Shown here: piece after piece, positions 5,081-35,325 of the stretch
Layout: every line of letters begins with the position of its first letter
How positions within the stretch are numbered: position 1 is the first letter of the stretch
The notes under the pieces: generated by a model
Database searches by the model: none
What the model was told of the DNA's origin: nothing
Seen by the model: the letters and a program-made list of their open reading frames with translations, nothing else
Translations under genes and position numbers: made by a program
Origin: Basidioascus undulatus
Lineage: Eukaryota
Reading direction: 5' to 3'
DNA: 35,325 bases
Assembly (NCBI GenBank): GCA_000826855.1
Contig: JTLS01000001.1
Location: 62,001 to 97,325 of the forward strand

Positions 5081-7499
5081 ATGAGTCTATACGCGGGCAT
5101 TCTCACACCAGACGCATCAGCGTCTTCGCCGTTGAATCCATCCGCCACGCCTAGCGCGCCATCCCCGACGACCGACGCCGGCGGGAGCGAGCAGCCCTCC
5201 AAGGCGGCGTCCTCGGCAGTGGCAGCATCGGCAGCAGCAGCAGCACCAGGTATCTAAGGGTCCCTGGGCGTGTGGCGCATGGCTCTGCCCAGCCCGCACG
5301 CTCTGCCCTTTCCCGGTTGCCCGCACCCCTCGATCTGAGCGCTCACCTCCGTCGTCTTCCCGCGCACTCCCCCCTCCCACCCGCTCCCTTCCCTCCCCAC
5401 CCAGCATGGTCCGCCGCCCTCCGCTTCGCGCCCGTGGCTCGCAAGCCTGCGCAAAAACCCAAAGCCTCGAGACCCTCCATCCCGGCCGCGTTCGCAGGCG
5501 CGACGAGCACCGTTATCGAGGCGCCTCCGCAGATGGCGGTCCCTCCCGCCACCGCCCCGCCGTCTTCGGCGGCATCTGGAGCGCCCGCTGCCCCACGCAT
5601 CAAGCCGCCTCCGATGACGCTCGATGATGACGATGTGAATGGGTTCAAGGCCACTGCGGCCGGGCAGAAGGCTTCAAAGAAGGTGCGTCTTCTCCGTCAC
5701 TCAGGCTAGGTAGTAGGAGATTCAACACGCTGGTGTGGGGTGCTACAGAGGAAGAAGAACAAGAAGAACGCGCCCCCGCCCGGCCCGTCGTGGGACGACG
5801 AGTACGACCCGCGCCGGCCGAGTGACTACCAGGAGTACAAGGACTGGGTCAAGGCGCGCAGGGAGGAGGCGCGCTGGCGGCGCGAGCAGGAGCGCAGAAG
5901 GGAGAGGGAGAGCAGCTACAGCGAGAGCAGCGACTACAGCGAGAGCGAGGACGAGGAGCGTGCGAAGAAGATTGGTGTGCTCCCCTGCCTCTTCTTGAGG
6001 CTACAAACGCTGATAGACCCCGTCGCTGCGCCAGGCCGATTCTTCGCTCCGCCAAAGTCGTACGACGACAAAGAGGGCTCAGCGCCCTCCGTGCCCTCCG
6101 GCTCCCGTCGGTCCACCCCACCTCCTCCGCCACCGCCCGCTCCGGCCATGGCCATCAACAAAGCCGAGTCAGGCGAGGAGGCGTACCTCCGTCGGCTCGC
6201 CATGTCCGGCCAGGCGCCGCCTCCCGCCGCCGCCGCTCCCCCTCCTCCCGCTTCCGTCGCCGCTACACCTACATTCAAACCCGCCGCCGTGGCCCCGTCC
6301 TTTACTCCCGCTGCCGTCCGCGCGCCATCCTTCACCCCTTCCGCGTTTCCGCCCGCTGCGCCCGCCCAACCGCCCACACCAGCGACAGGCGAAGAAGCCT
6401 ACCTCCGGCGCATGCAGCTGTCTGGCCTCGCCGTCCCTCCTCCGTCCGCGATCCTCAACCCCTCGGCCTCAGCTTTCATGCCCGCTGCTCCGGCACATGC
6501 ACCGGCACCCGCGGGCGCGGACCCGAGCGCGTTCGACGCGCGTCTCCAAGCGAGCAAGAGCGCCGCAGCGGCCATCGCTGCGCGCTTGGCGGCAGCCGCG
6601 CCTCCGCCGGCGCCGCCGGAGCTTGCGGCCGTCGACGACTTCCTGTCCTCGCTCGACGAGTCAACTGTGAACCAGGAGGCCGCGGCCGCGGTTGCTGAGG
6701 CTGAGGCGAAGTACGTCTCTCTCTTCTCCTCTCCGCTCTCTCTCACCTTGCGTCCGCGCGATTACTGACTCCCTGAACGTGACGGGCAGAGCGGACAAGA
6801 GTAAGTTCGCCCAGCGGTTCATGTCCAAGTACGGGTGGAGCGAAGGCCAAGGCCTCGGCGCGTCCTCCTCGGGCATCACGCGCGCTTTGTCCGTCGAGCG
6901 TGCGCCACCCACGCCCGCGAACAAGAAGGCCGGCAGATCCGAGGCGGAGGCCTCGGCGATCGCGAGCACCAAGGCGCGCGGGCAGATCATCAACGCGAAT
7001 GCCGACCCGGGCAAGGAGGCCGACCGCGCGCGCTTTGGCGAGCCGAGCAAGACGATCTTGCTCCGGAACGCAGTGCGGAGGGACGAGGTGGACGATGATC
7101 TGGCGGGCGAGATCGGTGCGTCCCCCACATGCGGTGAAGCTGAAGTGAGATGCAGGAGATGTTGACGGATGCGACCGCGGCGGGACAGGCGAGGAATGCA
7201 ATAAGCACGGCATCGTCGAGCGCGTCGTGGTCCACTTGCCGCCGTATCCGCAAACACCAGAGGACGACGTGCGGATCCTCGTCCGCGTACGTCCCCCGTC
7301 CTCCATCCTCTTCCCTTCCTTTCCCTTCCACAATCGTCTAGCACACTCTGACCCGCGTGCCCTGCCCGAGCAGTTCTCCGGCCTCGTCGGCGCGTACAAC
7401 AACGTGCGCGAGCTCGACGGCCGCTTCTTTGGCGGGCAACAGATCCGCGCGACGTACTATGATGATGCCCGATTCCAGAGCGGGGATTATAATGCTTGA
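5081..7499 (+). CDS. SPF45: Splicing factor 45 / RBM17-like protein (SF45 motif, G-patch, C-terminal UHM-type RRM), 7 exons
   Basis: Starts MSLYAGI; WDDEYDPRRPSDYQEYK motif; G-patch FAQRFMSKYGWSEGQGLGASSSGI; UHM ILLRNAV...EIGEECNKHGIVERVVV...ELDGRFFGGQQIRATYY; all introns GT-AG; TGA at 7497-7499. Confidence 0.9.
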
Positions 7500-8546: not shown

Positions 8547-8881
8547 AAGGGGCGCTAGATAGGATGTGGAGCGGAGCGGATGAACGGACAACATTGCATT
8601 GATCAACGAATGTTGAGCGTTTCTAGCGGGGTACTGAGTGACACGGCGGCATGCTTCGAGTGTGGATGCGGAAGCGGCTGCCGCGCCCTCCGCCATCCCC
8701 GCTCAAGACAGGCATTTCAGATTAGGATGAGAGTTACGATGGATGCGATGCAAGCAGGGACGATACAGTACGGACAAGGCGACGGACAGTGATTACCAAG
8801 CGTCACGAGATGCAGAAGCGGGTGGGTAAACTAAGCGAGGGCATGAGGCCCCAAATCATGGCGAGATCGCGTAGGGGGCAA

Positions 8882-9702
8882 TCAGTGGCATGCCATTCCC
8901 TTCGAGTCGAGAGACGGAATGTCGAGTTCGCGGTGCAGGAGGAAATGCCCGATGCCGGCGCCCACGATGACGGCCCCGATGAGATAGCCCTGAGCGTCGT
9001 CGGGTTGGCTGAGAAGCGGCAGGAAATACGATGAAGGGGCGGAGCACGCACATTGTATGTCATGAACACGAGCATGAGGAAGAACGAGAGAGCGACGCTC
9101 AGTGCGTACAGCACCGAGCGCTGCACCTGCTGGCTCCTCGGCACGGTGATCTTGCTGGCCACCCGACACAACCAGCCCGCCCAGTCAGCTTGGCTTGCCC
9201 TTCCACATCGTGCCTTTATTGATGCATTGACTCACCAGGGAAGCGCCTTGCTCTCCAGCAGCCGCTCGCCCTCGCCCTCCTCCTCAAGCCGGGACGACCC
9301 CCTCACCACCACGCCGTACGACGCCGCGATGCGCTCGTCCAATGCGCGCTGGCGCGCACGAAGGTGCTCGAACAGGATACCGAGCCCGACGATGGCCAGC
9401 AGGGAGAGGACGAAGGTGCCCCCGCCGGTGATGTGCCATTGCGGGAAGACGACGCAGGTGTCTTGATAGCGGCCGTCAGTTCAGCGGCTCCTGACCGCGG
9501 ACAGCAGGCTCACCCTTGATCTGCCAGTTCCAAAGCATGTGCAGCTACCCTCCCTCAAAAGGCCGCGCCCATCAGCTTCCCGCATTCAACCGCAGCGAGG
9601 AACATGAAGGGCGCGATATCGCCGGACCTTGCACGTCGGCGCCGGCATCTCGTGCCCGCCGCCATGGCCCATGCCGCCGTGGTTCATGCCGTCGTCGAGC
9701 AT
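8882..9702 (-). CDS. CTR2: Ctr (SLC31) copper transporter, Ctr2-like, 5 exons
   Basis: Met/His-rich N-terminus MLDDGMNHGGMGHGGGHEMPAPTCK|LHMLWNWQIK|DTCVVFPQWHI; MxxxM motif (LMLVFMTYN); GxxxG in TM3 (GAGIG); C-terminal GMACH*. Confidence 0.88.
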
Positions 9703-12793: not shown

Positions 12794-14480
12794 ATGCCTA
12801 TCCCTCAGCGCTCGCTCGGAGGGGATGCGAAGGACGTTCGCGTAGGCGCCATCGGCCATGGTCTCATGCTCCTGACGTGCGGGCCCTTCCTACCCGTTGA
12901 TCCGTCCGTTCGCGTACTGATCTATGTCGGACAAACAGTTGGAAGCCTGAGCCGCACACGTATGTACTCATCTTCAATCTCTCTCGCTCCTCTAGGCGCG
13001 TCGCTGATCCTGCGGGAGCGGGCAGCCCGGATGATGAGGCCTTCGAGTCCATGATTGCCGCGCTTGAGGTGAGTTCTCTCCTTCGTTTTCAGCCATAGGC
13101 TCTGAAGAATTTAGACCTCATCCCCTTCTTCCACAGGCGGGAGCCAACTTCTGGAACTCGGGCGAGTTCTATGGCCAGCCGGACCCGAACGCGAACCTCA
13201 AGCTCCTCGCGCGTTTCTTCAAGAAGTACCCGCACTTGGCGGACAAAGTTGTACTCTCTGTCAAGGGCGGCCTGAAGGTTGGGCAGCTCGCTCCAGACAG
13301 CAGGTACAATTCTCATTCTACCTTCTCATCCCCTGATCCATCCCGAGGCTCACATCGGGTGGGGATCGTAGCGAGGAGAACCTTCGGCGCAGCATTGACC
13401 GCATCAACGAGGTTCTGGAGGGTACCAAGACTGTTGACCTGTTTGAGGTGGGTGCAACGCGGCTGCTGCTCATTTGGATGCTGACGCGCTTTGCGGCAGC
13501 CCGCTCGGCTGGACGCCAGCCGGCCGATCGAGGACACCATCAAGATCCTTGCCAAGCTCCAGAAGGAGGGCAAGTTCAAGCACATCTCGCTCTCGGAGGT
13601 TTCCGCAAAGACTTTGAAGACTGCTCTGTCTGTGCGTAATACTTATCTCTCCTTCAGTGCCCAGGTCGTCTTCTTATTGACCGGAAGTGATAGATTACCC
13701 CCATTGCCGCCGTGGAGATCGAGCTCTCGCCGTGGTCGCTGGAGCCTGAGGCGCTGGAGGTGGTGAAGGTCGCAGAGGAGAGCAACGTTGGTGAGTTGAT
13801 CAAAGGCGCGTGCGGTACAAGATGTGTGGTTAACGTGGCTTCCGCAATTCCCAGCTGTCATCGCTTACAGGTTTGGCATTCGTGTCTTCGTCCTTGACCT
13901 CTTGGAGTCTGCCTGCTCACAAACTTGAATGACAGCCCCCTTGGACGTGGTATGCTGACGGGAAGGCTGCGGTCCCGCGCGGACATTCCCGAGGGCGATT
14001 GGCGCCTGCACATGCCTCGCTTCTCCAGGGAGGTGCGTCTTATCTTGCCTTGGCCTCCTCATACCAGTTTAGAGGTCCAGTCTTCACTAGTCCTCTGCAT
14101 GACTCCCTATCTCAGAACTTCACCCACAACCTCGAGCTCGTCGATGCAATCCAGAAGCTGGCGAACAAGAAGGGCGTGACGAGCGCGCAGTTCGTCCTCG
14201 CCTGGCTGCTCCGCTTCTCGCCCGTCGTCATCCCCATTCCCGGCTCGAGCCACAAGACGCGCACACACGAGAACATCAAGGGCGCGGAGGTCCAGATCAC
14301 GGAGGAGGACGACAAGGCGATTAAGGACGTGCTCGCTCGCTTCACGACCAAGGTTCGTGGAATGTGCTGCGAACGTATGGCCCCCTGACGCGGCCTTATG
14401 GCTGACCTCTGGCTCTGAGCATCAATTGGAAACAGGGCGGCCGCTACCCGGATGCGGCAACACCCACTCTCATGGTCTGA
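12794..14480 (+). CDS. Aldo-keto reductase, pyridoxal reductase (AKR8/plr1/YPR127W)-like, 11 exons
   Basis: [12 protein letters not shown]...[13 protein letters not shown]...KVVLSVKGG...DLFEPARLD...ISLSEVS...AVEIELSPW...[12 protein letters not shown]...IPIPGSS...GGRYP; all introns GT-AG; TGA at 14478-14480. Confidence 0.9.
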
Positions 14481-16440: not shown

Positions 16441-17413
16441 ATGGGTTACTACGCCTATGCGACGGGCGCCACCCTCTCCATCACCACGCTGGTCGTCCTC
16501 TATCTCGTTCTCACCGGTTCGGCCTGTCCCGCTTCTGCGCCCTCCTGGCATCTGCTGAGCCCCTGACAACCCCCTGCAGGCACCGGCGAAGCGATCAACA
16601 TCGGGCGTTTTCTGGAGGAGAGCAGCCCGTACATGTGGGCGCTGGTGGGCGTTGGGTTGTGTATCGGCTTGAGCGTGGTGGGCGCTGGATGGTGAGTCCG
16701 CCAGGTCACGGTCATGATCGGCAGGTGCGCTGGGCCCGGAAGCTGAGCAGTAGGGGCGGGCGGTCGCACTGCGCAGGGGTATCTTCATCACGGGCTCTTC
16801 CATTCTGGGTGGTGGTGTCCGCGCTCCCCGAATCCGCACGAAGAACCTTATCAGGTGCGTTCTCAACCGCACCCTCTCAGGCGCGACCCACATCCCCCCC
16901 ACTCACCCTGCCGCCCGCCGAGCCAGTATCATCTTCTGCGAAGTCGTCGCCATCTACGGTGTCATCATGGCGATTGTCTTCTCCTCCAGGATCCAGGGCG
17001 TCGCGCCCGACGCGCTCTACACGCTGAGCAACTACTACACCGGCTACGCGCTCTTCTGGGGAGGGATCATCGTCGGCCTGTGCAACCTGCTCTGTGGTGT
17101 CGCGGTCGGTGTGACCGGCTCCAACGCTGCCCTCGCGGACGCCGCGGACCCCGGATTGTTTGTCAAGATCCTGATCGTCGAGGTGTTCAGCAGTATCATG
17201 GGACTGTTCGGCCTCATCGGTGGGTCGTGTGGAGCGCTGGTCCTTGAGGTGGGAGATAGAACAGTGCGCTGATCAGGTGCTGCTGGTCCCTTATCGCTGC
17301 AGTCGGTCTGCTTATTGTGCGTCTTTCATTGCCTGCACGATGCCCTAGGCCCCACGCTGACTGGACACGCTGCCCTTTCACAGTCCGGAAAGGCCGAGGA
17401 GTTCTCGGCATAG
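16441..17413 (+). CDS. VMA16: V-ATPase V0 proteolipid subunit c'' (21 kDa), 6 exons
   Basis: [60 protein letters not shown]...[42 protein letters not shown]. Confidence 0.95.
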
Positions 17414-17725
17414 CCCTACCTTATACCGCTTACCTCTGCCCCTTATTTCGTATGGCCTCATACGCATCGACCTCAATGAAATTTCTCTGTATCTTCTGTG
17501 GGAATGGCGTTTCCAAAATGCGCTGTGCCGTGTCTGCTAGCCGCACTGCACGCACAACCTCAACTAGGACATGCCGCACATCTTCCCGCGCACGAGAGTA
17601 ACGCGAGCGGGGACGCTCAGCTGCATGTTCGGGATGCCGTGTCCGCTAACAGACCACAAGCAGCAAGCAGGCCGCAGATGCAGAGCGGTGTTGCAAGTGC
17701 ATCAACATGATCCAATCCGCCCGTC

Positions 17726-18750
17726 CTATGCCCGCCTCGCTGCATCCGCCTTGCGGGCCGCCTCGCGCTCCCGCGTCGCGATAGTCCAGTCGTCCTCCCT
17801 GGGCTTCTTCTCCGCCTTTCCACCCTGCGGCACCTCTGCGGGCGCGTCCTCATCGTCGATCTCTGTTCGAGGGTTGAAGCTCGTGTCAGCTTTGAGGGAC
17901 AAAAATGGTTGAATGGACAATAACGAACCTTCGCCGTAGAACTGTTGAGTCGATGGAAGGTGTTGAGCTCTATGCGGAGATGCGTCGCTAAGAAGGGCAG
18001 ACGACCGACCTCAGGGTGGCGCCGGAAGCAGTCCTGCATCGCCTTGAACTTGTCTACGCAGTCGATGCCCTTCGGCTCCGCTTCAGAATAGACAAAGCAG
18101 GCTGTCGTTAAAGAGATGATGGGTCAGCACCATGCCCGACTGAAGGGAATCAGACACCGCGACGCACAGAACGCGGCCTTGAACTCCTCCCCACACGGCC
18201 CATGCGCCATCCCGCCAAGACACGGGCAATCCCTGCCATCCGTATCCAGCACAATCAGTTTCAACCCAGATTGTACTCTGACTCCACCCGGCCGATCCGA
18301 CTTCAGGACGTACCAGTTGATCTCCCCCGTGATCGGGTTCACCGCCCCCTGGCTAGCAGCGTCCTCATCATCGGCCAGTTCAGGCGCGTTCGCCGCAGAG
18401 GTGTAAGGCGAATCAGACGCAGAGGGCTGGGACTCGTCGGCAGCCTCCTGCGCCTTCTGCTCGATAGCGGAAGGCGCGGGCGAAGAGACAGGGTCGGTGA
18501 GCACTGCTGATGGAGGTCAGCGGGGGAACGCAGGGGCATGGCAACGGGAGATGAACGCACTGGGCCCATCCAGCTTCACATCATTCCAGCTGTTGCTTAG
18601 CGCCCATGCACCGAGAGCAGCCGCGGCTGCAGCGGACGCGAATGCCGCGCCGGACCTGCTCGGCGCGGCGGAGCTGGAGGCGCTCGAGAAGGAGCGCGCA
18701 GCTCGGGCAGAGCGCGCGAGGGAGGAACGCAGAAGAGTGCGAGCGAACAT
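17726..18750 (-). CDS. MIA40: Mitochondrial intermembrane-space import oxidoreductase Mia40, 6 exons
   Basis: Presequence plus hydrophobic anchor; [68 protein letters not shown] contains the CPC motif and twin CX9C. Confidence 0.95.
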
Positions 18751-23135: not shown

Positions 23136-26100
23136 TCAATCCCGCTTGCTAAGCTCTTGCAGCGCGACCTGTCACAGGTCCGAAGCGTCAGTTCCACAAG
23201 CATCATGGCAATGAAGAAAAAGATAGGATCGCGACACACAAGCTCCGCATACTGCACAAACAAGGATATGAGTTGTCAGAACATTCCCTCAATGAAAAGT
23301 GCGAGAACGACGCACAAGTCCCGCCTTGTCCTGGAGCAGCTCGTTGTGAGTGCCTGCTTGGCTGACACGCCCGTCCTTGAACACGTAGATGATGTCGGCC
23401 TTCTGGCTGTAAAACTCAACAACCTGGTGAGCTGAGAAATCATTCCACGCATGGGCGCAACATCTTACATCGTGGACAGGCGATGCGCGATGGCGATGGT
23501 AGTGCGCCCCCTAGCGGCGTTGTCCAAGGCCTGCGTGAGAGCGATATTGTTTAGAGCTCGTTCCGGTTAAAGTTGCGGCAAAGACTCACAGCCTGCACGA
23601 CCTTCTCGCTCTCCGAGTCCAGCGCCGAGGTCGCCTCGTCGCTGCGTGTGTCCAAGAAGTTGTTCAGTACGAAGACTATCCCGAACGTGTACCGCTTCAG
23701 ACATACAGGAGGAGAATCTTCGGCTGGCGGATGAGGGCACGGGCGATTGCAATACGCTGACGATGACAGGATGTCAACGCTGCGAATCGTGGAGGTTAGG
23801 AGAGAGGATGATCACCTGTTTCTGCCCGCCGCTGAGTTGAGTGCTGCAGACATACATGCACATGTCAGTACTGCACTTGCCCAGTCACATTTATGGAACG
23901 CTCTCTTACCCTTTGCCTCCCACCTGAGTGTCGAATTTGTCGGGAAGCTGCTTAATGAAGTCGAGAATGTTCGCGTCACGGCAAGCCTAACACAAATTGT
24001 AAGCAAACGAGTCCTAAGCAACGACTAAGTCTTCTCGCACCTGCTCGAGCTCCTCCTGGGTCACTTCCTCTGCGGGCTTGACGGCGCCGAGCAGGATGTT
24101 GTACTTGATGGTGCCCTGATAGCTGTTAAGATACCTTGGTATCAGCCCTGTCCCTCGTGTGAGAAGCAATCAGGTAGCTTACAGCGTTGGCTCCTGAGAA
24201 ACGAGGGCGATATGCCGACGGAGATTGGCGACGTTGAGCGAGGTAAGCTCGTGACCGTCGAGCGTGATGCGGCCGACCTATGTCCGCCTTCCGCGTCAGC
24301 GGTGAAATAGATCCATCAGAAAAGAAGCAGGTATTCACAATGGCATCGTAATAACGTTCAATGAGCTGGATTGTCGTCGACTTGCCGCAGCCAGACGGGC
24401 CGACCAGCGCGACGTAGGTGCCCGGCTTGATCTCGAGGTTGAGCGAGCGAAGGACGCGGACGTCAGGACGAGTGGGGTAGCGGAAATGAACGTCCTCGAA
24501 GCTGTCCGAGTCATCAAAGTTCAGCAAATTAAGCACGAGACACTGTGAGATTGCCACACGCACCGGAGGTGACCCTCGACGTGGTCGAGCTTAAGGCCTT
24601 CCTCAGACTCGGAGTCGATCTCCGGTTCAGAGTCAAGCAGGGTCATCGTGCGGCTCGCCCCACCTTTGGCGGAAGAAATGTCGGGCACGAAGGAAAAGAC
24701 GTTGCGTGGAGGCGGAAGGAGATGTTAGACAAAGAAGGACCAGGAGCGAAGATCATGACTTATCAGCTTGGATTGAAGCCTGCAGAGTGCACGAGTTCAG
24801 TATTATGCACATTTGTTGCATTGGAGAGGGGTAGCAGACTCACGAAGACGACAGACATAAGGACTGAAGATGAAAATGATCAGCTTCAGTTCACCACAAG
24901 TTCCGGAACAGCGCGGCGTGAGGGAAGTCCACCTCGCTTTCCAACAATTACTTACCGATGAAGAACTTCTCGGGGTTGTACTCGCCGCTGATCAGGAGGC
25001 CCGCGCCGTACCAGAAGACTGTGCGTGAGGGGCAGAACATCCGTCAGAACGCCTTGCCGACAACAACAGACGCGAAAGACGAACTCAGGGCAATGACCCA
25101 GAAGGCGAGAGCCTGCGAGAGGGCGTAGATTGCGCTGCAAGCAGAAAGAAACCTCAGAATCAATTGAACGGAATCAGGTAATACTTTGAAATGAGCTTAC
25201 TTCGACGTCAGAGAAGTACGGTGCGACAGCCGAGCAGGCGCCTCGAGCGACTCGTGGTCTGCAATGTCCCATAGCCATTCAGCACTATATTGTGAGGTAT
25301 CGAGAAGAGTTTCTTACAGATGCGGGAGCAATCGTCCTCACGAGTAAGGGAAGCCACTGTGCGAATAGCACCGGCGGCCTCACAAGCGAGTTGCGCCGAC
25401 TCATCATGCGCCTTCTTATTCTTCTGGTCCTTGAGGACAACGACTTGAAGGCGAATGTAGCCGGCGCAGACGCTTCAAGGTAGAGCAAGAGTAAGCGTCA
25501 AAGCGAGCAGGGTCTCGGGCGGGGCAGGGCGTACGTGAGCGGGATGCACGCGGTGCCTACGAGCCCGAGTTTCCAACCGTTGCTGAAGTGCAGGTCAATA
25601 TAGCCAGCAAAAAAAAGAATCAGCACAGAAAGGGTGAAACGCACGCGACACCGATGATAATGCTGCCGCGCAGGACAATGCAGTCAGCAGCGAGGACAGA
25701 CACCAGAATGAAAGTCAGCGACGCACCCTCCAACAAGCGTCGCGATAGACTGGATGATTGTTCCGAGTGTGACCCCGCTAAAATTACACAAATATATCAC
25801 TTAAGAGTCAGATGTGGCATATGCAAAGTCTGGTATTGTGCCGACGCACGCGAGCCCCTGGACCTTCTGCGCGTTATCGGCGAGCTGCGAAGTGAGAGCG
25901 CCGGTCGAGTTGTCGGAGTTATCGAAGTACTGTGGTGAATAGAGTGAGAAAATATCCCAGTTTGCGTGAAGCCGGCAGGACCTACCTTGACGTCCTGGCG
26001 AAGGAGTGCCCGGAAAGACAGGGCTCGCAGCTTGAAGGTCAGAAGCTCCGATGTGCGGGTCATGCAGAAGGTTTGCACGAAGATGGCCTTTGCGTTAATC

Positions 26101-29100
26101 ACGACGTTAGCCGTTTGTCCCGATTGGCCTACAGGGCGACGCTTGAGAAACGTACAATGGTTGCGGCGATTGCGATGATGAAGAACCAGAGGCCATTGCG
26201 GTCACCCTCGTGACGAAGCTCGGAAGGGTTGTCACCAGAGTAGTCCGCAAAAGATCTGCGGAAAGTAGATCAGCGACTGCTCGCTTTCCTGTAATCAACT
26301 CGCAAGCTAGGGCGTACTGCAGAGTGCGACCGAAGACAATGCCCTAAAGTAACAACAGCCTGTTAGGACTCTTTTCCTCATACTGAAAAAATATGCTTAC
26401 GAAACAAGGGTAGACCAGTCCCGAGGCGATCTAGAGAGTGACGAAATATGTGAGATAAGAATGCTCGACCATTCGGAAAGGATAATACGTGCCGCTCCCA
26501 AGGTACCGAGCATGTAGAGATTCTTCGCATCCCAGTTGATCTGTGTGCGGAGAGGGATCGGTTAGCAATGAAAGGGGCGTAGCTGGTCTTGGGTAACGTA
26601 CCAACAGCATGCGCTTCAGAATCGCGAACATGGCTGTGGGTAGAGATACGGGTCAATCTGTGTTGTCGTGTCTCTGACTGGAGCGAGTGACCAACAATGC
26701 TTGTCCCTGTACGCCTGCTCTTCGTCCTCTTCCCTCTTGCGCTTTGCCAAGATCTCGGAGGCAATCGAATGCCCCGTGCCGACGCGCGCAAGCGGTTGCT
26801 CCTTCTGCGCAAGCTCCTCGGCTTCTTCGCGCGAGAGGGCAGCCGGACCGGCGCTGTTCTCTTCACCCTGCTTGGCAGCGGCGAGTTTTTGAGCGGCAAC
26901 GAGACGACTGGAGAAATGATGGTGAGTCAGACACACAGTCAAGCTAAACGACTCAGTGCAGCTCACGAGTAAGGGCTGTCGGGGTTGGTGAGCACTGGGT
27001 GGAGGCGACATCAGCCATGGTGTGTACATCGGCACCGGCGTCGAACTCACACTCTTCGTGAGTTCCGGTCTCCAGAAGCTCGCCGCCGCCCATGACGAGG
27101 ATCTGGTGAGCGTCGCGAACAGTGCTGAGACGGTGAGCCTAAGAAACGGTAAACCATGAGCAATTTTCGTCGTCGAAGAAGGGCGAATGAAACAGAGCGC
27201 ACAATGACGATGGTGGTGCGACCTTGGGAAGCCTTGTCGAGCGCGTCCTGGACGATTCCTTCGGACTGCGTGTCGAGCGCCGAGGTTGCTTCCTGCAAGG
27301 GCAGCGAGCAGATTATGAGTACCATTCCGAGCAGTATGCCGGAGTCTTCTCTCACATCGAGCAGGAGGATGAGCGGGTCCGAAACGATAGCACGGGCGAT
27401 GGCAATTCGCTGCTTCTGCCCTCCGCTGAGGAGCATGCCCCTATTTCACGCATTCGCGGATCAGCCAAGAGTACAGTGAAACAGCGGTCTTCTGAGACTC
27501 CTTGACAAACCTTTCACCGACGTTGTTGTCGTATCCGAGCGGGAGGTTGGAGATGAACCCATCCGCATTGGCTTTGACCGCAGCGGCCTTGACAAGCTTC
27601 AACTTCTCGTCTGCGCTCAGCTGCTCCAGCGGCGTGCCGATCAGACCGTGCTAAGTCGACGCGTGTCTTAGTCCTCCTGCGTAAGAGCTTCATGAAGCCT
27701 CTAACGAAGCATGTACCTCGATATTCTCCCTCACGGTCGCGTTGAAGAGCACCGGTTCTTGCCCGACGAGGCCGATCTTCCCGCGAAGGAACTTCAAGCA
27801 GAAGCAGACAAGTCAGCGGCACGTTCTGACACACCAGCATGGCAGAGAGATTTGTTCACCTTGATGTTCAGGGACTTGAGCTCGTGGCCGTCGAGACGGA
27901 TGACTCCAGACTCCGGATCATAAAAGCGCCTGGCAATGATACTTTCAGCACCGCACTGTCAGAGAGTATTGAACACGACGCAACTTACTCAATGAGGGAG
28001 ACGATGGTGCTCTTCCCAGAGCCGGATGCGCCGACGAGCGCCGACTGATGGGAGGCTGATCAGCTCGAGTATGCAGAACGATCGTACTTGGAATCCTTAC
28101 CACCTTGCCCTTCGGGAAGGTGGCCGAGAAAGACTTCAGAATAGGCACATTCGGGCGAGCCGGGTACCGGAAGTTGACGTTCTGCCGGACATGTGAATGC
28201 GTTAGCGATAGCTGGCAGTTGCGTTCTGATCTGAGAATCAGCTCACCTCGAAGGTGATGTGCCCCTCGACATTCTCCGGCTTCTCACCCAGCGGGCTGGC
28301 GGAGTCGATGGGGGGGATGCGGTCAATCGTGTCGTAGATCTTAGCAGCAGCGCCGCGCGCCTTCGCAATGGCTTGACTGGAAATGCAGAAGCTCCGCGTT
28401 AGAAGCTGTTACGGGAAGGTATGATCAAGACATCGGTCTCGCACAGTTCAGGGGCAATCATGGCGAGCGAGAATGCGCCGATCAGGATGGCCCTTAATGC
28501 GCTGCAAAGTCAGCAGCCAGTCTCCGAAGGGGCAGACAGGATTCCACGTACAGGAACACGTTGACGACAACACCGACGTCAGTCTCGTTACGAAGAACGA
28601 GCGTAGTCCCGTAGACGAAAGCGAGGGCGTAAGACTGTTTGGGAACGCAGTGCAAACAGCTTAGGCAACTGTCCATTGTACCGAGGTGTACTGAAAGCTT
28701 ACGCTGTAGATGATGAAGAAGAAGGTCTGAAGCAAGTGATGCAAAGCTCAGCAGATGGACCTGGCTGAAAATTAGCAAGTGGGTGACACACCCCCAGACC
28801 GCAACCCATCTGCGCCACCGCAGGTCAGCACTGTGTCTCGCAAGGCGGTTCGGAAAGAGACTTACAACAACAGCGCCTTTCAGGCCGACAGTGCGCGCTT
28901 TCACAAGGTGGGTATCGTAGAGCGACGCCAGCTAGAAAGTACCGGCGTAGGGACTGTCAGGGAATGGGAAATACCGCAAGAGGCGAGCACCAACGCACAA
29001 TCTTTTGGGTGCCGAAAGCTTTCGCTGTGCGGACAGTCGAGATGACCTCCTCCGCAAGCGAACCCGATTCGGCAACCGCCTCGAGCGCCAGTTGTTGATC

Positions 29101-30528
29101 TGTGTGCTAATCGCCGTCTATCAGCCTATGTAAGGGCACCTAAGTATCGGTACTGACACTTTGTCATCAGAGTCGTCATGGTTCCACCCGCGACCTGCAT
29201 GGTCGGGCCATCAGCAACGCGCAGGAGGGCTTGAAGCGTTATCTGGGGCTTACCGCGATACACGGCATGATGACGAACAGAACACCAGCGAGCTTCGGTT
29301 GGCGGATGAAAGCGATGATAAATCCCGCAACGAAAGCCGCCAAGAACTGGACCGCAAGGGCGACCTTCTCCGAAATGCCCTGCTGGATGAGATGCGTGTC
29401 CGTCTCGATGCGTGTCGCGACCTCGCCCGCGCCGAGCTTGTCGAAGTATGCAATGTCCTTCGGCACAGACACGCAGAGTATGTCAATATGATTATCATCG
29501 CAATGTGGCAGCCAATGCGTGGGTGAAGTGCGCTTACCTGGCGAAGGACAGCACCAAGATACCGCTCACGTATGCGGCGCGAAATGGTCTCGGCCGTGTA
29601 GACCCAAGCAGCCATGTACATGTATGTGCCGACGAACATAGCGATACCGATGCTGGAAACGGGGAGAATTGGCATCAGGCTGGGGTTGGCCCAGTGATTA
29701 GCACGGGCTGAAAACGCACATGGTGAGGTAGAGCGCATTCATGTTGCCTATGATAGCATCAATGTGACGCTCAGTATTCCGGGGAGCTAGACCGTGGAAT
29801 ATTTATGAGTATCACATACAGTCGTCCCGAAGCGAGCGCCGGGCATTAATCAGATCAGCGAGGAAGCCAGCGTCGCCAGGATTGTCCATCGCATTCTTGG
29901 CGGCGTGCCCGAAATCCACGAAGGATCTGGTATGCGAGCGGTAATATATGAGTAATTAGGACTTTTGCCTTGGAACAAGCCAGAACAAGAGAGGCTCACG
30001 TCGTGAGGCGGCCGAAGATGAGTGTCATCAAGGCTGCGAAGGCAAGATGCCACTCAGCTAGGTTCGGGTTTTCACATGAGAACAAAGGGACTGACGCTGC
30101 ATTGCGCCAGCTTTGATACAGCAGGACGTGTTAAAAGTTTCGTCTGGGTAGCTCATGGGAAACGGGGCGCGTACCTCCGGCCGAGCACAAGAGTCCAACG
30201 AAGTTGATGAACTGTTCAGTCCGCGAAGTCTTCAGGATCTCTGGCAAACACATGCTCGCCGACCTCCCAACCCATCCGCCATCTCCGCGTGTAATTAGAA
30301 ATGCGGACGTACGAGCTCGAACTTGGTCGCGTACCGCCACAAGCTCAGCAGCGGGACGGACGGAGGCGCCGCCGGCTTAGCCGTGTCGGCGACGGCGACC
30401 TCAGTCGTCTGGTGCGCGTCGCTCGAGGTGGTCGAGGAGCGAAGCTCTTGCTTCTCGCTCAGAGAAGGAGGCTTCTCCGCCGCGAGGATGGCGCCCTGTT
30501 GGGCGGAAGAGTCGGGGATCTTGGACAT
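23136..30528 (-). CDS. Full-length ABCB (MDR/P-glycoprotein, Pmd1/Mdr1-like) transporter, TMD-NBD-TMD-NBD, about 54 exons
   Basis: Traced by hand from MSKIPDSS to [13 protein letters not shown]1: [44 protein letters not shown]2: [41 protein letters not shown]. The frame is continuous if one GC-AG and one AT-AC intron are accepted. Confidence 0.95.
24706..24763 (-). other. AT-AC intron (58 nt) in the ABCB gene
   Basis: Minus strand: ...CAA GCT G|ATAAGTCATG...GTCTAACATCTCCTTCCGCCTCCAC|GC AAC GTC TTT. Removing it restores [20 protein letters not shown]; retaining it gives TGA four codons after GCT. Confidence 0.85.
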
Positions 30529-31059
30529 GCTGGTCCCGATTCGAACGAAGGTTGGAATAGAGCCGGATCGGGGCGGCCAGCAGACGCCGGGAAGGTCAGG
30601 AAGCGCGAGAGTCGGAGGACGATATTGAAGAATTAGTGTGTAAATCAAGAATGCGAAGCCGAGATGATAATGAGGGAGTGGAGTGCAAGAACAAAAAAAA
30701 AGAAGCAGAGAAGGAGGTGTGAAAGCGACCAATCGAGGCCGGATGGATCGGATCGTTGGAACGCGTGTACAGCTTGCCGCTCACCAGCGGCTTCCAAGGG
30801 CACGCGCGGGCGGACGGCACGGCGCCCGCGATGGGGACACGGGGATCTTAATATTGTGCCCGAAGCTCACGGCGGCCGTTCTGCATAAGTATCGCCGAGC
30901 TCAACCTGGAAGGCCAATAGAAACGTTCTACACGCAGCTTATGTTGTGCTAGTGCTGCACTCTTACAGTCCCTCTATGCAAGCAATTGATTGTAACTCAG
31001 TTTAATGCTCAAGTACCTTCAGCTTGGTTGCTAGCTTGCTACCGCCAAGTCACTGGCAG

Positions 31060-31096
31060 AGTCATCGGGCAAAGTCATCGGGCACAGTCATCGGGG
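31060..31096. repeat. Three tandem copies of a 13-bp unit AGTCATCGGGCAM upstream of the ABC transporter
   Basis: agtcatcgggcaa agtcatcgggcac agtcatcgggg, preceded by a degenerate copy aagtcactggcag. Confidence 0.8.
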
Positions 31097-31424
31097 TCCC
31101 CAGGGAACGCGAGCGCGACCGAGCATCAAACTGGCCTGATGAGGCTGAGCTAAACGCATTCCATGCTGCAGCGCCGGCCAAACTTGGTCAAACTCATCGC
31201 AGCAAGTTGTCCCACCCAATCCCTACTAGAGGAGTTTTGGAAGAATGACATGATGCCATGCGTGGACGCAGGTGGCCACGGGAACCTCCTCTCATGAGCT
31301 GTCGGCTTTTCCGACGGCAAGTTTCATGAGCCTCCTTGATCGCCTTATCGTGCCTTGTCACCCTGTGTTATCAATTTTAAAGGGATAGAGGAAAGAAATA
31401 TCATGATGAAACATAATGTTTGAT

Positions 31425-32015
31425 CAGATGCGGGCGCTCATCTTTGTCGTTCACCAGTTTGTAGAACGCGGCACTGCCGGGATGCACCGGCGGCTTCGCA
31501 TGCGAGCTGTGCAAAGTCGTTATGGGCCTTCTTGTTCTTTTGGAAGACCACCTCAAAAGCATTTTTTAACCCCCCATACCCTTCAGATATATGCACCAGC
31601 CAGCGTTGGAGCGGGCATAGTCCTGGATCGGAGATCGGACAGGGGGTTCATGAGCGGGACGCATGCGGTGCCCACGGGGCCGGGGTTTCAACTATTGCTG
31701 AACAGGAAGACAGTGCGGTTAGCAACCTGAAACCGAGACAAAGTGGGCAGTAACCCGAGACCGATGGTAATGCTGCAGTGCAGGACAATGCAGTCAACGA
31801 GGATACCAGAAAGAAAACTCGGCGACACACTCCCCAATGAGCGTCGCGACGGACCGAGAGTTATGCTACTCAGGGTACTCAAAGACATGGTGAATTGTCA
31901 TGTATGGAATATACAAGTCTGATGTGGTACCGACACACGCGAGCCCTTTACCTTCTACGTATTCTCACTTCTGAGCAAGCTACGAAGTGGGAGGCGCAAG
32001 TCCGAAGTGTCGGAC
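31425..32015 (-). pseudogene. Decayed partial paralogue of the adjacent ABCB gene (TMD2 region, exons plus introns)
   Basis: Collinear with about 25320-25918. [23 protein letters not shown] matches [25 protein letters not shown], and VGTACVPL matches VGTACIPL. Carries TGG>TGA at 31690-31688, a GT>GA donor and indels. Confidence 0.85.
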
Positions 32016-32541
32016 GATGCAGTGACTTATCCTTTCATTCAGCATAGATAAATTGCTGCAACCTACTGAAGATTATTATCAGACCTGCCAAGGATCACGT
32101 TCGCATCAGGGGACTAGGACGGCAACTTCACGCTAGGCAGCGTGCAACAGATGTGCAAGATCATGAGCAAGGGAAGGGAGAACGGCATTCGTTGTCCCTT
32201 CATGTGACGGGTAAATACATTGGAGGCTCAGCACTCAAATAAGCCTATGATTCTTGGAGGAAACGGTCAAAGACCTGCCGTCGTCCGGGCCGTTGCACTC
32301 GCGTTCAGGGTTGCGGCTTCTTGGAGCGGGCACCGTCTCCGGACGCCATTGCCTTTTGTCAAACGGCGACCTCGGAGGGCCATATTGAGCCATAATCAAG
32401 TGGTCTGACTGATTCGAAGACAAATTTCATAGCATCCCCCGCATTAGCCCAGCCTCGTGTCTCCCTCCTCGCACTTCTGCACTGAACACCCTGCCGACGA
32501 GACTCTCATTGGTTTTTAACACTTGTGTGCATTCACCGTCA

Positions 32542-32615
32542 TCTTCGGTGGCGCAATTGGTTAGCGCGTCCGACTGTTAATCGGGAGGTTGTGAGTTCAA
32601 GTCTCACCTGAAGAG
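32542..32615 (+). tRNA. tRNA-Asn (anticodon GTT), intronless
   Basis: Acceptor stem TCTTCGG/CTGAAGA plus discriminator G; D arm GCGC-AATTGGTTA-GCGC; anticodon arm TCCGA-CTGTTAA-TCGGG; T arm GTGAG-TTCAAGT-CTCAC. Confidence 0.95.
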
Positions 32616-32625
32616 GACACAAACC

Positions 32626-32630
32626 TTTTT
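32626..32630 (+). terminator. RNA polymerase III T5 terminator of the tRNA gene
   Basis: TTTTT starting 11 nt after the discriminator base. Confidence 0.75.
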
Positions 32631-33568
32631 GGCCTGTGTGGGGTTGGGAGGCAGTGGTGAGGAATCAGTGCGGGGCGGGGTGGTGAACGTTGTTGCGGAG
32701 GAGCAGCAGCGTCGGTGTGTCGACCAACTGTCGAGTTCCATCCAGCCTAGAATTTTTGGTAGACCTGCTAAGTGGTCGTTGCATACAACAGAAGGGTCCT
32801 GAACCCTCACGAAGTCCTCAGGACAACACCCAGAAAAGCGCAACTGGCACCCATTGGTGGCACTGAACCGTCCTGAGTGGGTCTCTGAAGCCTGAGCCAC
32901 TGTAGACAGTTGAACGTGCCCTTTCATAGTATAGCGTTGTGCATGCCTATGAGGATTCTGGGTATTTTTTAGCGGCAAGGAGGGTACAAGACTGTACAAA
33001 CTGGGGCGGTGTCTGTCTGTGCTATCCGTCAGCGCATGGACTACCCAACTGCCGCGGCTCCCTATAAACTGCACTCAGGTATCTATACACCCACTTCGAC
33101 AGACATTTCTCGTCACTCCCTCCGTTGCTACCTTTTGTAGCAGGACAGTCCCACGAGCACTTCCAATAGTGTGCTTCAGAGCAGCCAACGCGCTTCCACT
33201 CTTTACCAGTGTCACGGGTCTGGCAGTGGAGTACGGTGCAGCCGACGTTGATGTATTCCAACTGTCTACGCAAGTCGCGGTGCTGCCTACACATCCGGCA
33301 CGGAAACGAGAACACATACAGATCTGCGGATTAAAAAGATACATCTCAACATGAACTTGCAAGTGAAAGGCTGAGTTCGGTGCTAAGGACGACTCAGCAG
33401 CTCGACGCGAGACGCCTCCACAGACGCGTCGCACGTGCAGTAGAATCCACTCAACACGCCTACCTGCCCTCCTTGCGCACCTCCTTGCAGCTCCCCAGCA
33501 TCCCACGCTCTCCATTCTTCCTCCCGGTCCTCCGATCTTCCCTCTCTCATAACACTTACTCACCCATC

Positions 33569-34246
33569 ATGTCCGACACCGCCTCCCCCGCGCCCGAGCA
33601 AGTCGAGGAGGTCGACCCGGCGGTCGCTCCCGCGCTCGAGGAGGAGGACGACGGAGAGGAGGGGACGTATGTGGATGATGATGATGAGGGTGCGGGTGAG
33701 GACGAGGAGGAAGATGATGAGGATGAGGTGCATCTTCCGATTCGCGGCCCGCGAGGCAGGCGAGTTGCAAGCTGATGAGAAGCGGTGGGTGCGGGACAGG
33801 GTCCCGGACTGGCCTACCTCGTCGAAGGGGACGTGGCGTCTGAGGATGATGACGAGGAGTATGAGTACGGTGGTGCGGCGGGAGAGTAGGTCTTCTCTTT
33901 CCCCTCCTCTCTCCCCTTTCCCTAATCCTTCCCTCTGTTCGCCTTTCCCTCCTTTACCGGCCCCGACCCCAAGCAACCTTTTCCGAACGCGCGGCTGACT
34001 GTGGTGCTGTGGGTGCTGGCGCAGGGAGGACGATACGGATGAGGAGCCCGAGTCGGATGCGGAGGGGGAGGAGGAAGAGGAGGAGCCGAGGGTGGGGGAG
34101 AAACGCGGGTGCGTCTTCCCACTCGCCTTGCCTTCCCGCGCGTCTTCCCGGAGTGGACGCTCATTTTGTTCCCGTGCATACACAGGCGCGCAGCCGCTGC
34201 GGAGGAGGAGGGGGATGCGCCGGAGGAGAAGAAGGCGAAGGCGTGA
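33569..34246 (+). CDS. 122-aa highly acidic protein with an ANP32E-ZID-like motif and C-terminal NLS; putative histone chaperone
   Basis: Exons 33569-33727, 33800-33864, 34025-34108 and 34186-34246 (all GT-AG, 369 nt) give MSDTASPAPEQVEE...DDEDE|GPGLAYLVEGDVASEDDDEEYE|EDDTDEEPESDAEGEEEEEEPRVGEKRG|RAAAAEEEGDAPEEKKAKA*. The gene model is well supported; the function is inferred. Confidence 0.8.
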
Positions 34247-34556
34247 GGACCGACAGCTGCGCGGGATGGGCGGACGGACGGACGGAGATGGAAAGGAAAG
34301 GAGGAGGGGCATATGTATGCTGCTTGTTGTTGTTGTTTGGCTGTTTTTGGAGTATACTATACTTGCTTGCATACTTGCTTGCGCGGAAAGCATGGTGGCT
34401 GAAAAGGCTTGCGCCCTGGACCACCTCCGCCATCGAATATGCCTGACCACCAGTACTGCTCTTCCGTTCCCCAAACCGCATTCAACATTCACGTAGCGCA
34501 GTCCTCAGTGGTACCAAGCCCCGCCGCCCTCGAAATAGTCGCTCAACGACCTCATT

Positions 34557-35325
34557 TCATCGCATCCCCGCCCCGCCCACCGCCTCCCACGCCCCGACAC
34601 ACATCGCGTCCCACCCCGCATCCTCCTCCACCTCCTTCCCTCCCTCCGCGCGGACGGTCGCCCGCCACACGCGCACGACGGGCGGGATGTGTCGCTCGAT
34701 CATCCGCCCCGTGAGGGCGCAGGGCTGGTTGTAGAGGGTTGTGAGGGAGGCGAGTAGGGACTGCGCAGGGGGAGAAGGGGGGGCAGTTGGGTGAGGGAGA
34801 GAAGAAAGAAGGGTTCAAGGGAGGAGTGGACGCACAAGCACGAAGGGCACGTTGGACTGCGGGTTGCTGGGGCGCGGGGCGAAGGGCGAGGTGGAGGGCG
34901 AGAGGGCGGAGGTGCAGTGCTGGGTGAGCGCTTGGAACACGGCGTGGTCCGAGATGTGGTAGGGCTTCTTGTTCTGCGGGCAAAGCACCACCATGTCAGT
35001 CATCCTGGACGGCTCAAGAAGGGGAAAGACAAGAACAGGAAGGGGAAACAGAGAAAGAGGAAGCGCAGGACGAACCGTCTCCAACGGCCCAAAGAACACG
35101 ATCCTCCTCACAACTGCGCCCTCCTCCCCCGTCCACTCCACATAAAGCACCGCCCTCCAGCTCCCCTCGCACAGCGCGTCCACCAGGTCCTCCCGCTCCT
35201 CCGGGAGCGCGTACTTGACGCCCCTGCCGCTCTCGCTCTCGGCCGCGAGGTGCCCACGCAGGGCGGCGGGGGTGTAGAGGTCGGGCGGCGGGGAGGAGAG
35301 CGGGAAGGGGCGCGGGAGGCGCTGT
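34557..35325 (-). CDS. 3' part of a probable Mediator subunit Med27-like gene, entering from the window end
   Basis: Spliced ...VRRIVFFGPLET|NKKPYHISDHAVFQALTQH...VPFVL|SLLASLTTLYNQPCALTGRMIERHIPPVVRVWR...WDAMCVGAWEAVGGAGMR*. Resembles the recalled Med27 C-terminal pattern SxxxVFQxLT...LFxxPCxxCG...PPxxR. Confidence 0.55.

Follow-up and report, generated by a model that had tools for sequence, protein, structure and literature searches.

A candidate stand-alone acidic H2A(.Z)–H2B-binding protein with an ANP32E-like motif, encoded by a probable four-exon gene of Basidioascus undulatus

Results

A plausible but unproven candidate for a stand-alone acidic protein that binds the H2A(.Z)–H2B dimer is encoded at 33569..34246 (+ strand) of the window, which is the whole 35,325-nt stretch of Basidioascus undulatus contig JTLS01000001.1 that was analyzed. 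The gene model has four exons and is probable, judging from its splice signals and reading frame. Exon 2 carries a short hydrophobic and acidic segment that aligns without a gap to the H2A.Z-interacting domain (ZID) of ANP32E. From its sequence, the mini-protein is predicted to be expressed, to reside in the nucleus, and to bind histones, conceivably with a preference for H2A.Z.

Composition and motifs of the mini-protein

The predicted 129-aa product contains 38 Glu and 21 Asp residues (46% D+E) and seven basic residues, and its net charge is −52. Aliphatic and aromatic residues number 15 in the whole protein, and four of them fall within LAYLV at positions 57–61. Exon 2 codes for GPGLAYLVEGDVASEDDDEEYEYGGAAG alone and holds the sole hydrophobic cluster of the protein. 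This is the arrangement that an earlier, sequence-only reading of the DNA had described, i.e., a protein rich in Asp and Glu with its main hydrophobic patch on an exon of its own. The acidic run, GEKR, and terminal KKAK that it placed after the patch were found as an acidic run, GEKRG, and a terminal EEKKAKA.

The ZID-like motif GLAYLVEGDVASEDDDEEY (33806..33862, + strand) spans residues 56–74. Within it lie the L57/L60/V61 triad, EDDDEEY74 as the DEF/Y motif, and S67, which forms a CK2-type site. The other CK2-type S/T-x-x-D/E sites are T33, T86, and S92, the last two of which are encoded by exon 3. A KR-x15-KKAK element (34101..34240, + strand; residues 108–128) is split by intron 3 and contains six of the seven basic residues; by analogy, it would be a bipartite nuclear localization signal. 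AlphaFold2 modeled the isolated exon-2 peptide without secondary structure (mean pLDDT 64), which fits disorder in the free state and is uninformative for a motif that folds on binding. When the four exon peptides were scanned separately against Pfam, no family was matched at E ≤ 10, CHZ and prothymosin included.

Similarity to the ZID of ANP32E

The 36-residue frame of exon 2 was compared with the PDB (177,635 distinct sequences) using phmmer, and a single match was obtained at E ≤ 10. The matching chain, 4cay_C, is the ZID of ANP32 family member E (15.6 bits, E = 0.19, 24 ungapped columns). For a feature selected by eye in a very large scan, an E value of 0.19 falls short of significance. 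The chain has GLSYLMKEEIQDEEDDDDY opposite GLAYLVEGDVASEDDDEEY, and the two line up ungapped over an equal span of 19 residues. Both the ZID sequence that the earlier reading had given and the equal 19-residue spacing from Gly to Tyr that it had noted are thus confirmed. The first Leu and the Tyr are 17 residues apart in the mini-protein as well as in ANP32E. Leu218, Leu221, and Met222 of ANP32E align with L57, L60, and V61, respectively, and Y74 aligns with the tyrosine that closes the acidic run of the ZID, which is taken to be the DEF/Y aromatic of ANP32E. All six hydrophobic or aromatic columns align to the ZID without a gap, and G56 and Y59 are identical. Control acidic peptides from exons 1 and 3 each gave no PDB match at E ≤ 10, which indicates that acidity alone is insufficient for the ANP32E match. 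As far as sequence comparison goes, the likeness to the ANP32E ZID is specific, being the sole PDB match at E ≤ 10.

The chance expectation was estimated from composition-preserving shuffles of the whole 129-aa protein, with patterns that had been defined after the match was seen. The triad pattern L..L[VMIL] occurred in 548 of 200,000 shuffles. The same triad followed 8–16 residues later by [DE]{3,}[FYW] occurred in eight of 200,000, and the full set of aligned columns in none of 200,000. The DEF/Y motif alone was present in 66,631 of 200,000 shuffles (33%). Hydrophobic clustering as such was less extreme, with windows of six residues holding at least four hydrophobic residues found in 1,860 of 20,000 shuffles. 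A chance match between two acid-rich peptides is a live option. Because the E value is 0.19, the patterns were chosen post hoc, and the feature was picked by eye, we treat the match as a specific and mechanistically sensible lead and not as evidence of homology.

The same data bear on a different reading, in which the gene is real and expressed and encodes a polyacidic nuclear protein of a generic kind, like prothymosin alpha. Such a protein would bind basic partners (linker histone, core histones, and ribosomal or other basic proteins) mainly by charge, and its likeness to the ZID would be a coincidence of composition. We regard this as possible and as only slightly less likely than the histone-binding reading. 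The net charge of −52 and the 46% D+E are in keeping with it, as are the absence of predicted secondary structure in the exon-2 peptide (mean pLDDT 64), the weak statistics of the ANP32E match, and an overall plan like that of prothymosin alpha, in which an MSD start is followed by a long acidic stretch and by KR...KKxK at the C terminus. It sits less easily with the rarity of the hydrophobic triad among the shuffles (548/200,000), the six hydrophobic or aromatic columns that run ungapped against the ZID, and the absence of a match between the exon peptides and the Pfam prothymosin family.

Gene structure

The 129-aa product is obtained by joining the exons in frame through three GT..AG introns on the + strand. 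The four in-frame exons of the sequence-only reading were borne out in this way, whereas its length of 122 aa has to be corrected to 129 aa. Exon 1 (33569..33727, + strand) encodes residues 1–53, which consist of MSDTASPAPEQVEEVDPAVAPALEEE and then an acidic run. Intron 1 (33728..33799, + strand; 72 nt) has the form GTGCAT...CTGAT...CAG; its length is a multiple of three, and it contains an in-frame TGA at 33776. Exon 2 (33800..33885, + strand) encodes residues 54–81 and supplies two further nucleotides. Intron 2 (33886..34024, + strand; 139 nt) has the form GTAGGT...CTGAC...CAG and is pyrimidine-rich (29% purine). Exon 3 (34025..34108, + strand) encodes residues 82–110, with the codons at both of its ends split, and comprises an acidic run and then PRVGEKRG. 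Intron 3 (34109..34185, + strand; 77 nt) has the form GTGCGT...CTCAT...CAG. Exon 4 (34186..34246, + strand) encodes residues 110–129, RAAAAEEEGDAPEEKKAKA, and the TGA stop. The CTGAT, CTGAC, and CTCAT elements of introns 1, 2, and 3, respectively, are located about two dozen bases 5′ of the AG. GT..AG introns with a CTRAY-like element near the AG are the usual style of fungal introns. At every donor, the acidic frame is about to close (TGA at 33776; TAG at 33887 after exon 2) and is reopened by the acceptor. Retention of intron 1 would yield an acidic product of 69 aa without the motif exon. A donor-like GTGAGG at 34243–34248 (+ strand) overlaps the TGA stop; if it were used, the last residue would be lost and reading would continue downstream, where no candidate exon was seen.

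The ATG at 33569 lies in the context CCCATCATGTCC, with A at −3, and no other in-frame ATG precedes it after the stop at 33332. Directly 5′ of it is a pyrimidine-rich tract (33440..33568, + strand) with 73% C+T, as against 49% in the 800 bases before it, in agreement with the promoter-like tract described earlier. The tract is presumed to be a core promoter or a 5′ UTR. Tandem repetition in the exons is weak; the best TRF rows are GATGAG ×8.2 (71% matches) and GGA ×8.3 (81%).

The G+C content of the window is 57.5%. Recognizable genes in the window are divided into many short ORFs and have short introns, which suggests that the genome is intron-rich. A large ABC transporter gene (ABC_tran, ABC_membrane; ~24100–30800, − strand) is broken into many short ORFs. 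The other neighbors include a G-patch protein (6671–7162, + strand), a Ctr copper transporter (8806–9231, − strand), an aldo-keto reductase in two exon ORFs (13068–14385, + strand), and a weak match to a CHCH-domain protein (17620–18123, − strand). An ORF at 16754–17269 (+ strand) is an exon of a V-ATPase proteolipid subunit c″; in the PDB, it scored highest against the c″ chains of 6m0r and 5tj5 (66.3 bits), followed closely by chains named as the 21 kDa proteolipid subunit (62.8 bits). A convergent gene without a Pfam match, deduced from ORFs, appears to occupy ~34505–35325 on the − strand up to the window end. Its end is ~260–310 bp from the stop of the mini-gene, so that the 3′ UTRs of the two genes probably meet or overlap.

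An ORF of 314 aa (33563–34504, − strand) runs antisense to the mini-gene over its full length. Over exon 2, its codons exactly mirror those of the sense frame, and for this reason it was rejected as a gene. With neither a Pfam match nor a homologue, it is probably a by-product of the acidic coding sequence.

Searches for relatives

Word-indexed protein searches returned no relatives. The exon 1 query in the "longer" mode gave 3,630 candidates, none of them at E ≤ 1, and region 79–131 of the exon-1 ORF, with lengths restricted to 80–256, gave 81 candidates, none at E ≤ 10. With the antisense 314-aa ORF as the query, 8,000 candidates were scored and none reached E ≤ 1. An exhaustive HMMER comparison of the 36-aa exon-2 frame with 1.84 billion representatives, in which a query of this length passes near-identical relatives only, produced one match at E ≤ 0.001. 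This sequence (P0005) was rejected as a relative; it is a translation of 2,503 aa made up of tandem repeats, and its 25 matches are confined to the acidic EEDDEEYEFGE part and reflect low complexity. Its repeat unit is ~95 residues long, each with EEDDEEYEFGE, and it looks like an ORF of satellite DNA. Two metagenome loci matched the back-translated GLAYLVEGDV; in both, the ten residues fall in flanking sequence without the acidic run or any other likeness, and the loci were judged by eye to be chance matches. In the ESM Atlas, the best score of the exon-2 peptide was 0.83, below the level worth following. Since the queries are short or of low complexity and have little power, these blank searches say little about whether orthologues exist.

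The structural and search results together bear on whether there is a gene at all. The exons could be GA-rich low-complexity DNA flanked by a tRNA gene and by the 3′ end of the convergent gene, in which GT/AG pairs fortuitously stitch an acidic frame together. No protein search found a homologue and no Pfam family was matched; in addition, exons 1 and 3 contain weak tandem repeats, GA-rich and CT-rich tracts alternate, and the antisense strand has an open frame of 314 codons, as is expected of low-complexity DNA. Nevertheless, we judge such an artifact to be unlikely. All three introns combine a fungal-type donor with a CTRAY-like element before YAG, and the acidic frame is restored exactly where it is closing. 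The ATG, with A at −3, is the first in frame past a stop. The Asp and Glu codons are mixed and are broken by other residues, so that no clean microsatellite is present, and ~3.7 kb of a dense window is otherwise gene-free.

Other partners and the upstream region

The LAYLVE patch might instead dock a partner other than histones, either as a PP2A-B56 LxxIxE-type site with an acidic patch or as a phospho-regulated SUMO-interacting-type motif, and the protein would then be a regulator or inhibitor of that partner and not a histone chaperone. L57-x-x-L60-x-E62, together with the acidic residues and a CK2-type Ser, fits the B56 consensus, and inhibition of PP2A has been described for members of the ANP32 family. 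On the other hand, the motif consists of six degenerate residues without statistical support, and docking of this kind leaves unexplained the spacing to Y74 and the identities of G56 and Y59 with the ZID. We therefore consider it very unlikely.

The mini-gene appears to stand alone. An intronless tRNA-Asn(GTT) gene (32542..32615, + strand) was identified by ARAGORN and by Rfam (RF00005, 66 bits), of which it was the only match. It is located 953 bp 5′ of the ATG and is likely to be the upstream boundary of the transcription unit. Leucine-rich repeat (LRR) families were matched by none of the 36 + strand stop-to-stop ORFs of at least 30 aa in 30561–33549, i.e., the 2.9 kb upstream, at E ≤ 1, nor by any of the 108 ORFs of at least 110 aa in the whole window. 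These scans apply to reading frames of at least 30 aa within the window. The three weak family matches among the 36 upstream ORFs are to unrelated families and are all below the curated cut-offs. The absence of upstream LRR exons seen by the sequence-only reading agrees with these counts and with the position of the tRNA gene in between. The exons might also form the acidic tail of a larger gene whose upstream exons, LRR-coding or other, were missed. The frame 5′ of the ATG, which is open back to 33332, and the possible acceptor CAG at 33488–33490 in the pyrimidine tract would be compatible with this, but it is highly improbable given the LRR counts (0/36 and 0/108) and the tRNA-Asn gene 953 bp upstream.

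Discussion

Proposed mechanism

Here, we tentatively propose that the locus is a small intron-containing gene for a nuclear, polyacidic, disordered protein, which would bind the free H2A(.Z)–H2B dimer through its DEF/Y tyrosine and the LxxLV helix upstream of it, as the ANP32E tail does. The biochemistry of ANP32E provides the template. As described in passages of Mao 2014 (PMC3975505), residues 214–224 of Anp32e form a helix on α3 and αC of H2A.Z through L218, L221, and M222; L218A and L221A weaken the binding, and L218A/M222A abolishes it. In the same source, H2A.Z–H2B is bound by the acidic tail (186–268) and not by the LRR part (1–185). Since the tail binds the dimer without the LRR part, an LRR-less form is mechanistically credible. 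The DEF/Y motif is defined in the relevant text of Wang 2019 (PMC6544321) as consecutive Asp or Glu residues plus one aromatic residue, and it engages the arginine finger of H2A(.Z) and a pocket of H2B.

In the proposed mechanism, the acidic runs of the mini-protein would mimic DNA and cover the DNA-binding surface of the histone dimer. EDDDEEY74 would function as the DEF/Y motif: its Asp and Glu residues may cap the arginine finger in the L2 loop of H2A(.Z), and the Tyr side chain may enter the α1–α2 pocket of H2B. L57, L60, and V61, seventeen residues upstream of the Tyr, would fold on binding into a short helix on α3/αC of H2A.Z. This helix would resemble that of ANP32E (L218/L221/M222) and could provide a preference for H2A.Z. 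Because the two anchor points are fixed on the dimer, the identical 17-residue distance between Leu and Tyr suits a bidentate binder, as far as can be inferred. The C-terminal KR-x15-KKAK may direct nuclear import, and the CK2-type sites S67, T86, and S92 could tune the charge.

The selectivity for H2A.Z is the less secure part. According to the part of Wang 2019 (PMC6544321) concerned, H2A.Z preference is not conferred by the DEF/Y motif itself. An H2A.Z preference of the ANP32E kind is doubtful for the mini-protein on its sequence. The full proposal of a fungal, stand-alone, LRR-less chaperone of the ANP32E-ZID type that prefers H2A.Z–H2B would make it either a relic of an ANP32 gene that fungi are thought to have lost or a separate invention of the bidentate module, with an αC-binding helix and a DEF/Y tyrosine at identical spacing, and we hold this to be a decidedly long shot. 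Reilly 2014 (PMC4270211) reports that annotations of the ANP32 family are lacking for fungi, and no fungal ANP32E-like or LRR-less ZID-type protein is described in the literature searched, which was covered mostly at the level of titles and abstracts. Swr1, Swc2/YL1, Anp32e, Spt16, and Chz1 have the DEF/Y motif in common and are called ancestrally unrelated in the same sections of Wang 2019 (PMC6544321). Because DEF/Y modules recur in unrelated chaperones, convergence is more likely than descent from an ANP32 tail as the source of the likeness.

According to passages of Mao 2014 (PMC3975505), a preference for H2A.Z has been demonstrated among fungal chaperones for Chz1 alone. If the proposal is true, fungi would gain a second H2A.Z-selective chaperone beside Chz1, possibly for H2A.Z removal, and a ZID-type module would be shown to work without an LRR scaffold. 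The mini-protein would then also offer a very small natural system in which to dissect H2A.Z–H2B recognition and would bear on whether acidic modules that bind histones are inherited or have arisen anew several times. Should it prove to be a generic acidic protein, or the gene model to be false, the locus is of little interest.

Comparison with known systems

The closest parallel is the ZID of ANP32E (PDB 4CAY chain C, also 4NFT), with which the mini-protein shares the ungapped pattern G-L-x-Y-L-[M/V]-x3-[I/V]-x-acidic-Y. In both proteins, the module is set within a long acidic region and is followed toward the C terminus by a GEKR-type basic element, which in ANP32E reads GEKRKR. V61 takes the place of M222, and the linker that joins the helix to the Tyr has other residues. 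The mini-protein also differs from ANP32E in having no LRR domain and only 129 aa in total. Of the two features of the ANP32 family, LRRs were not found in the window, and we therefore do not file the mini-protein as an ANP32 member; the acidic region is present (46% D+E over 129 aa), as a matter of composition and not of homology.

Among the DEF/Y modules (Chz1-C, Swr1-Z, Swc2/YL1, Spt16, and Swc5), EDDDEEY at residues 68–74 agrees with the definition of the motif and stands in a disordered acidic context. The DEF/Y class is defined by function and not by homology, and the motif is common by chance at the composition of the mini-protein. The known modules are located in larger proteins or in ones with other motifs (CHZ, BCNT), and none of the five appeared among the PDB matches to the exon-2 peptide.

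Fungal Chz1 (PF09649) is likewise small, acidic, disordered, and stand-alone, with a C-terminal DEF/Y motif, and beside it the mini-protein is a candidate histone-dimer chaperone only. The CHZ motif (PF09649) gave no match at E ≤ 10 to the four exon peptides scanned separately, a scan that covers motifs within single exons, and a basic-hydrophobic segment of the CHZ type is not visible in the mini-protein. As there is no CHZ match in the exon peptides, we take the mini-protein not to be a Chz1, and the distinction from the yeast protein that had been drawn from the sequence holds.

Prothymosin alpha and parathymosin are polyacidic, disordered proteins of ~110–130 aa with a C-terminal bipartite KR...KKxK, and act as H1 chaperones through charge. 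The prothymosin/parathymosin family (PF03247) gave no match to the exon peptides at E ≤ 10. Prothymosin is not known to have a hydrophobic LxxL[VM] patch or a DEF/Y tyrosine, nor to occur outside animals. In comparison with prothymosin alpha, the size, the acidity, and the KR...KKxK element are alike, whereas the LxxL[VM] patch and the Tyr are present only in the mini-protein.
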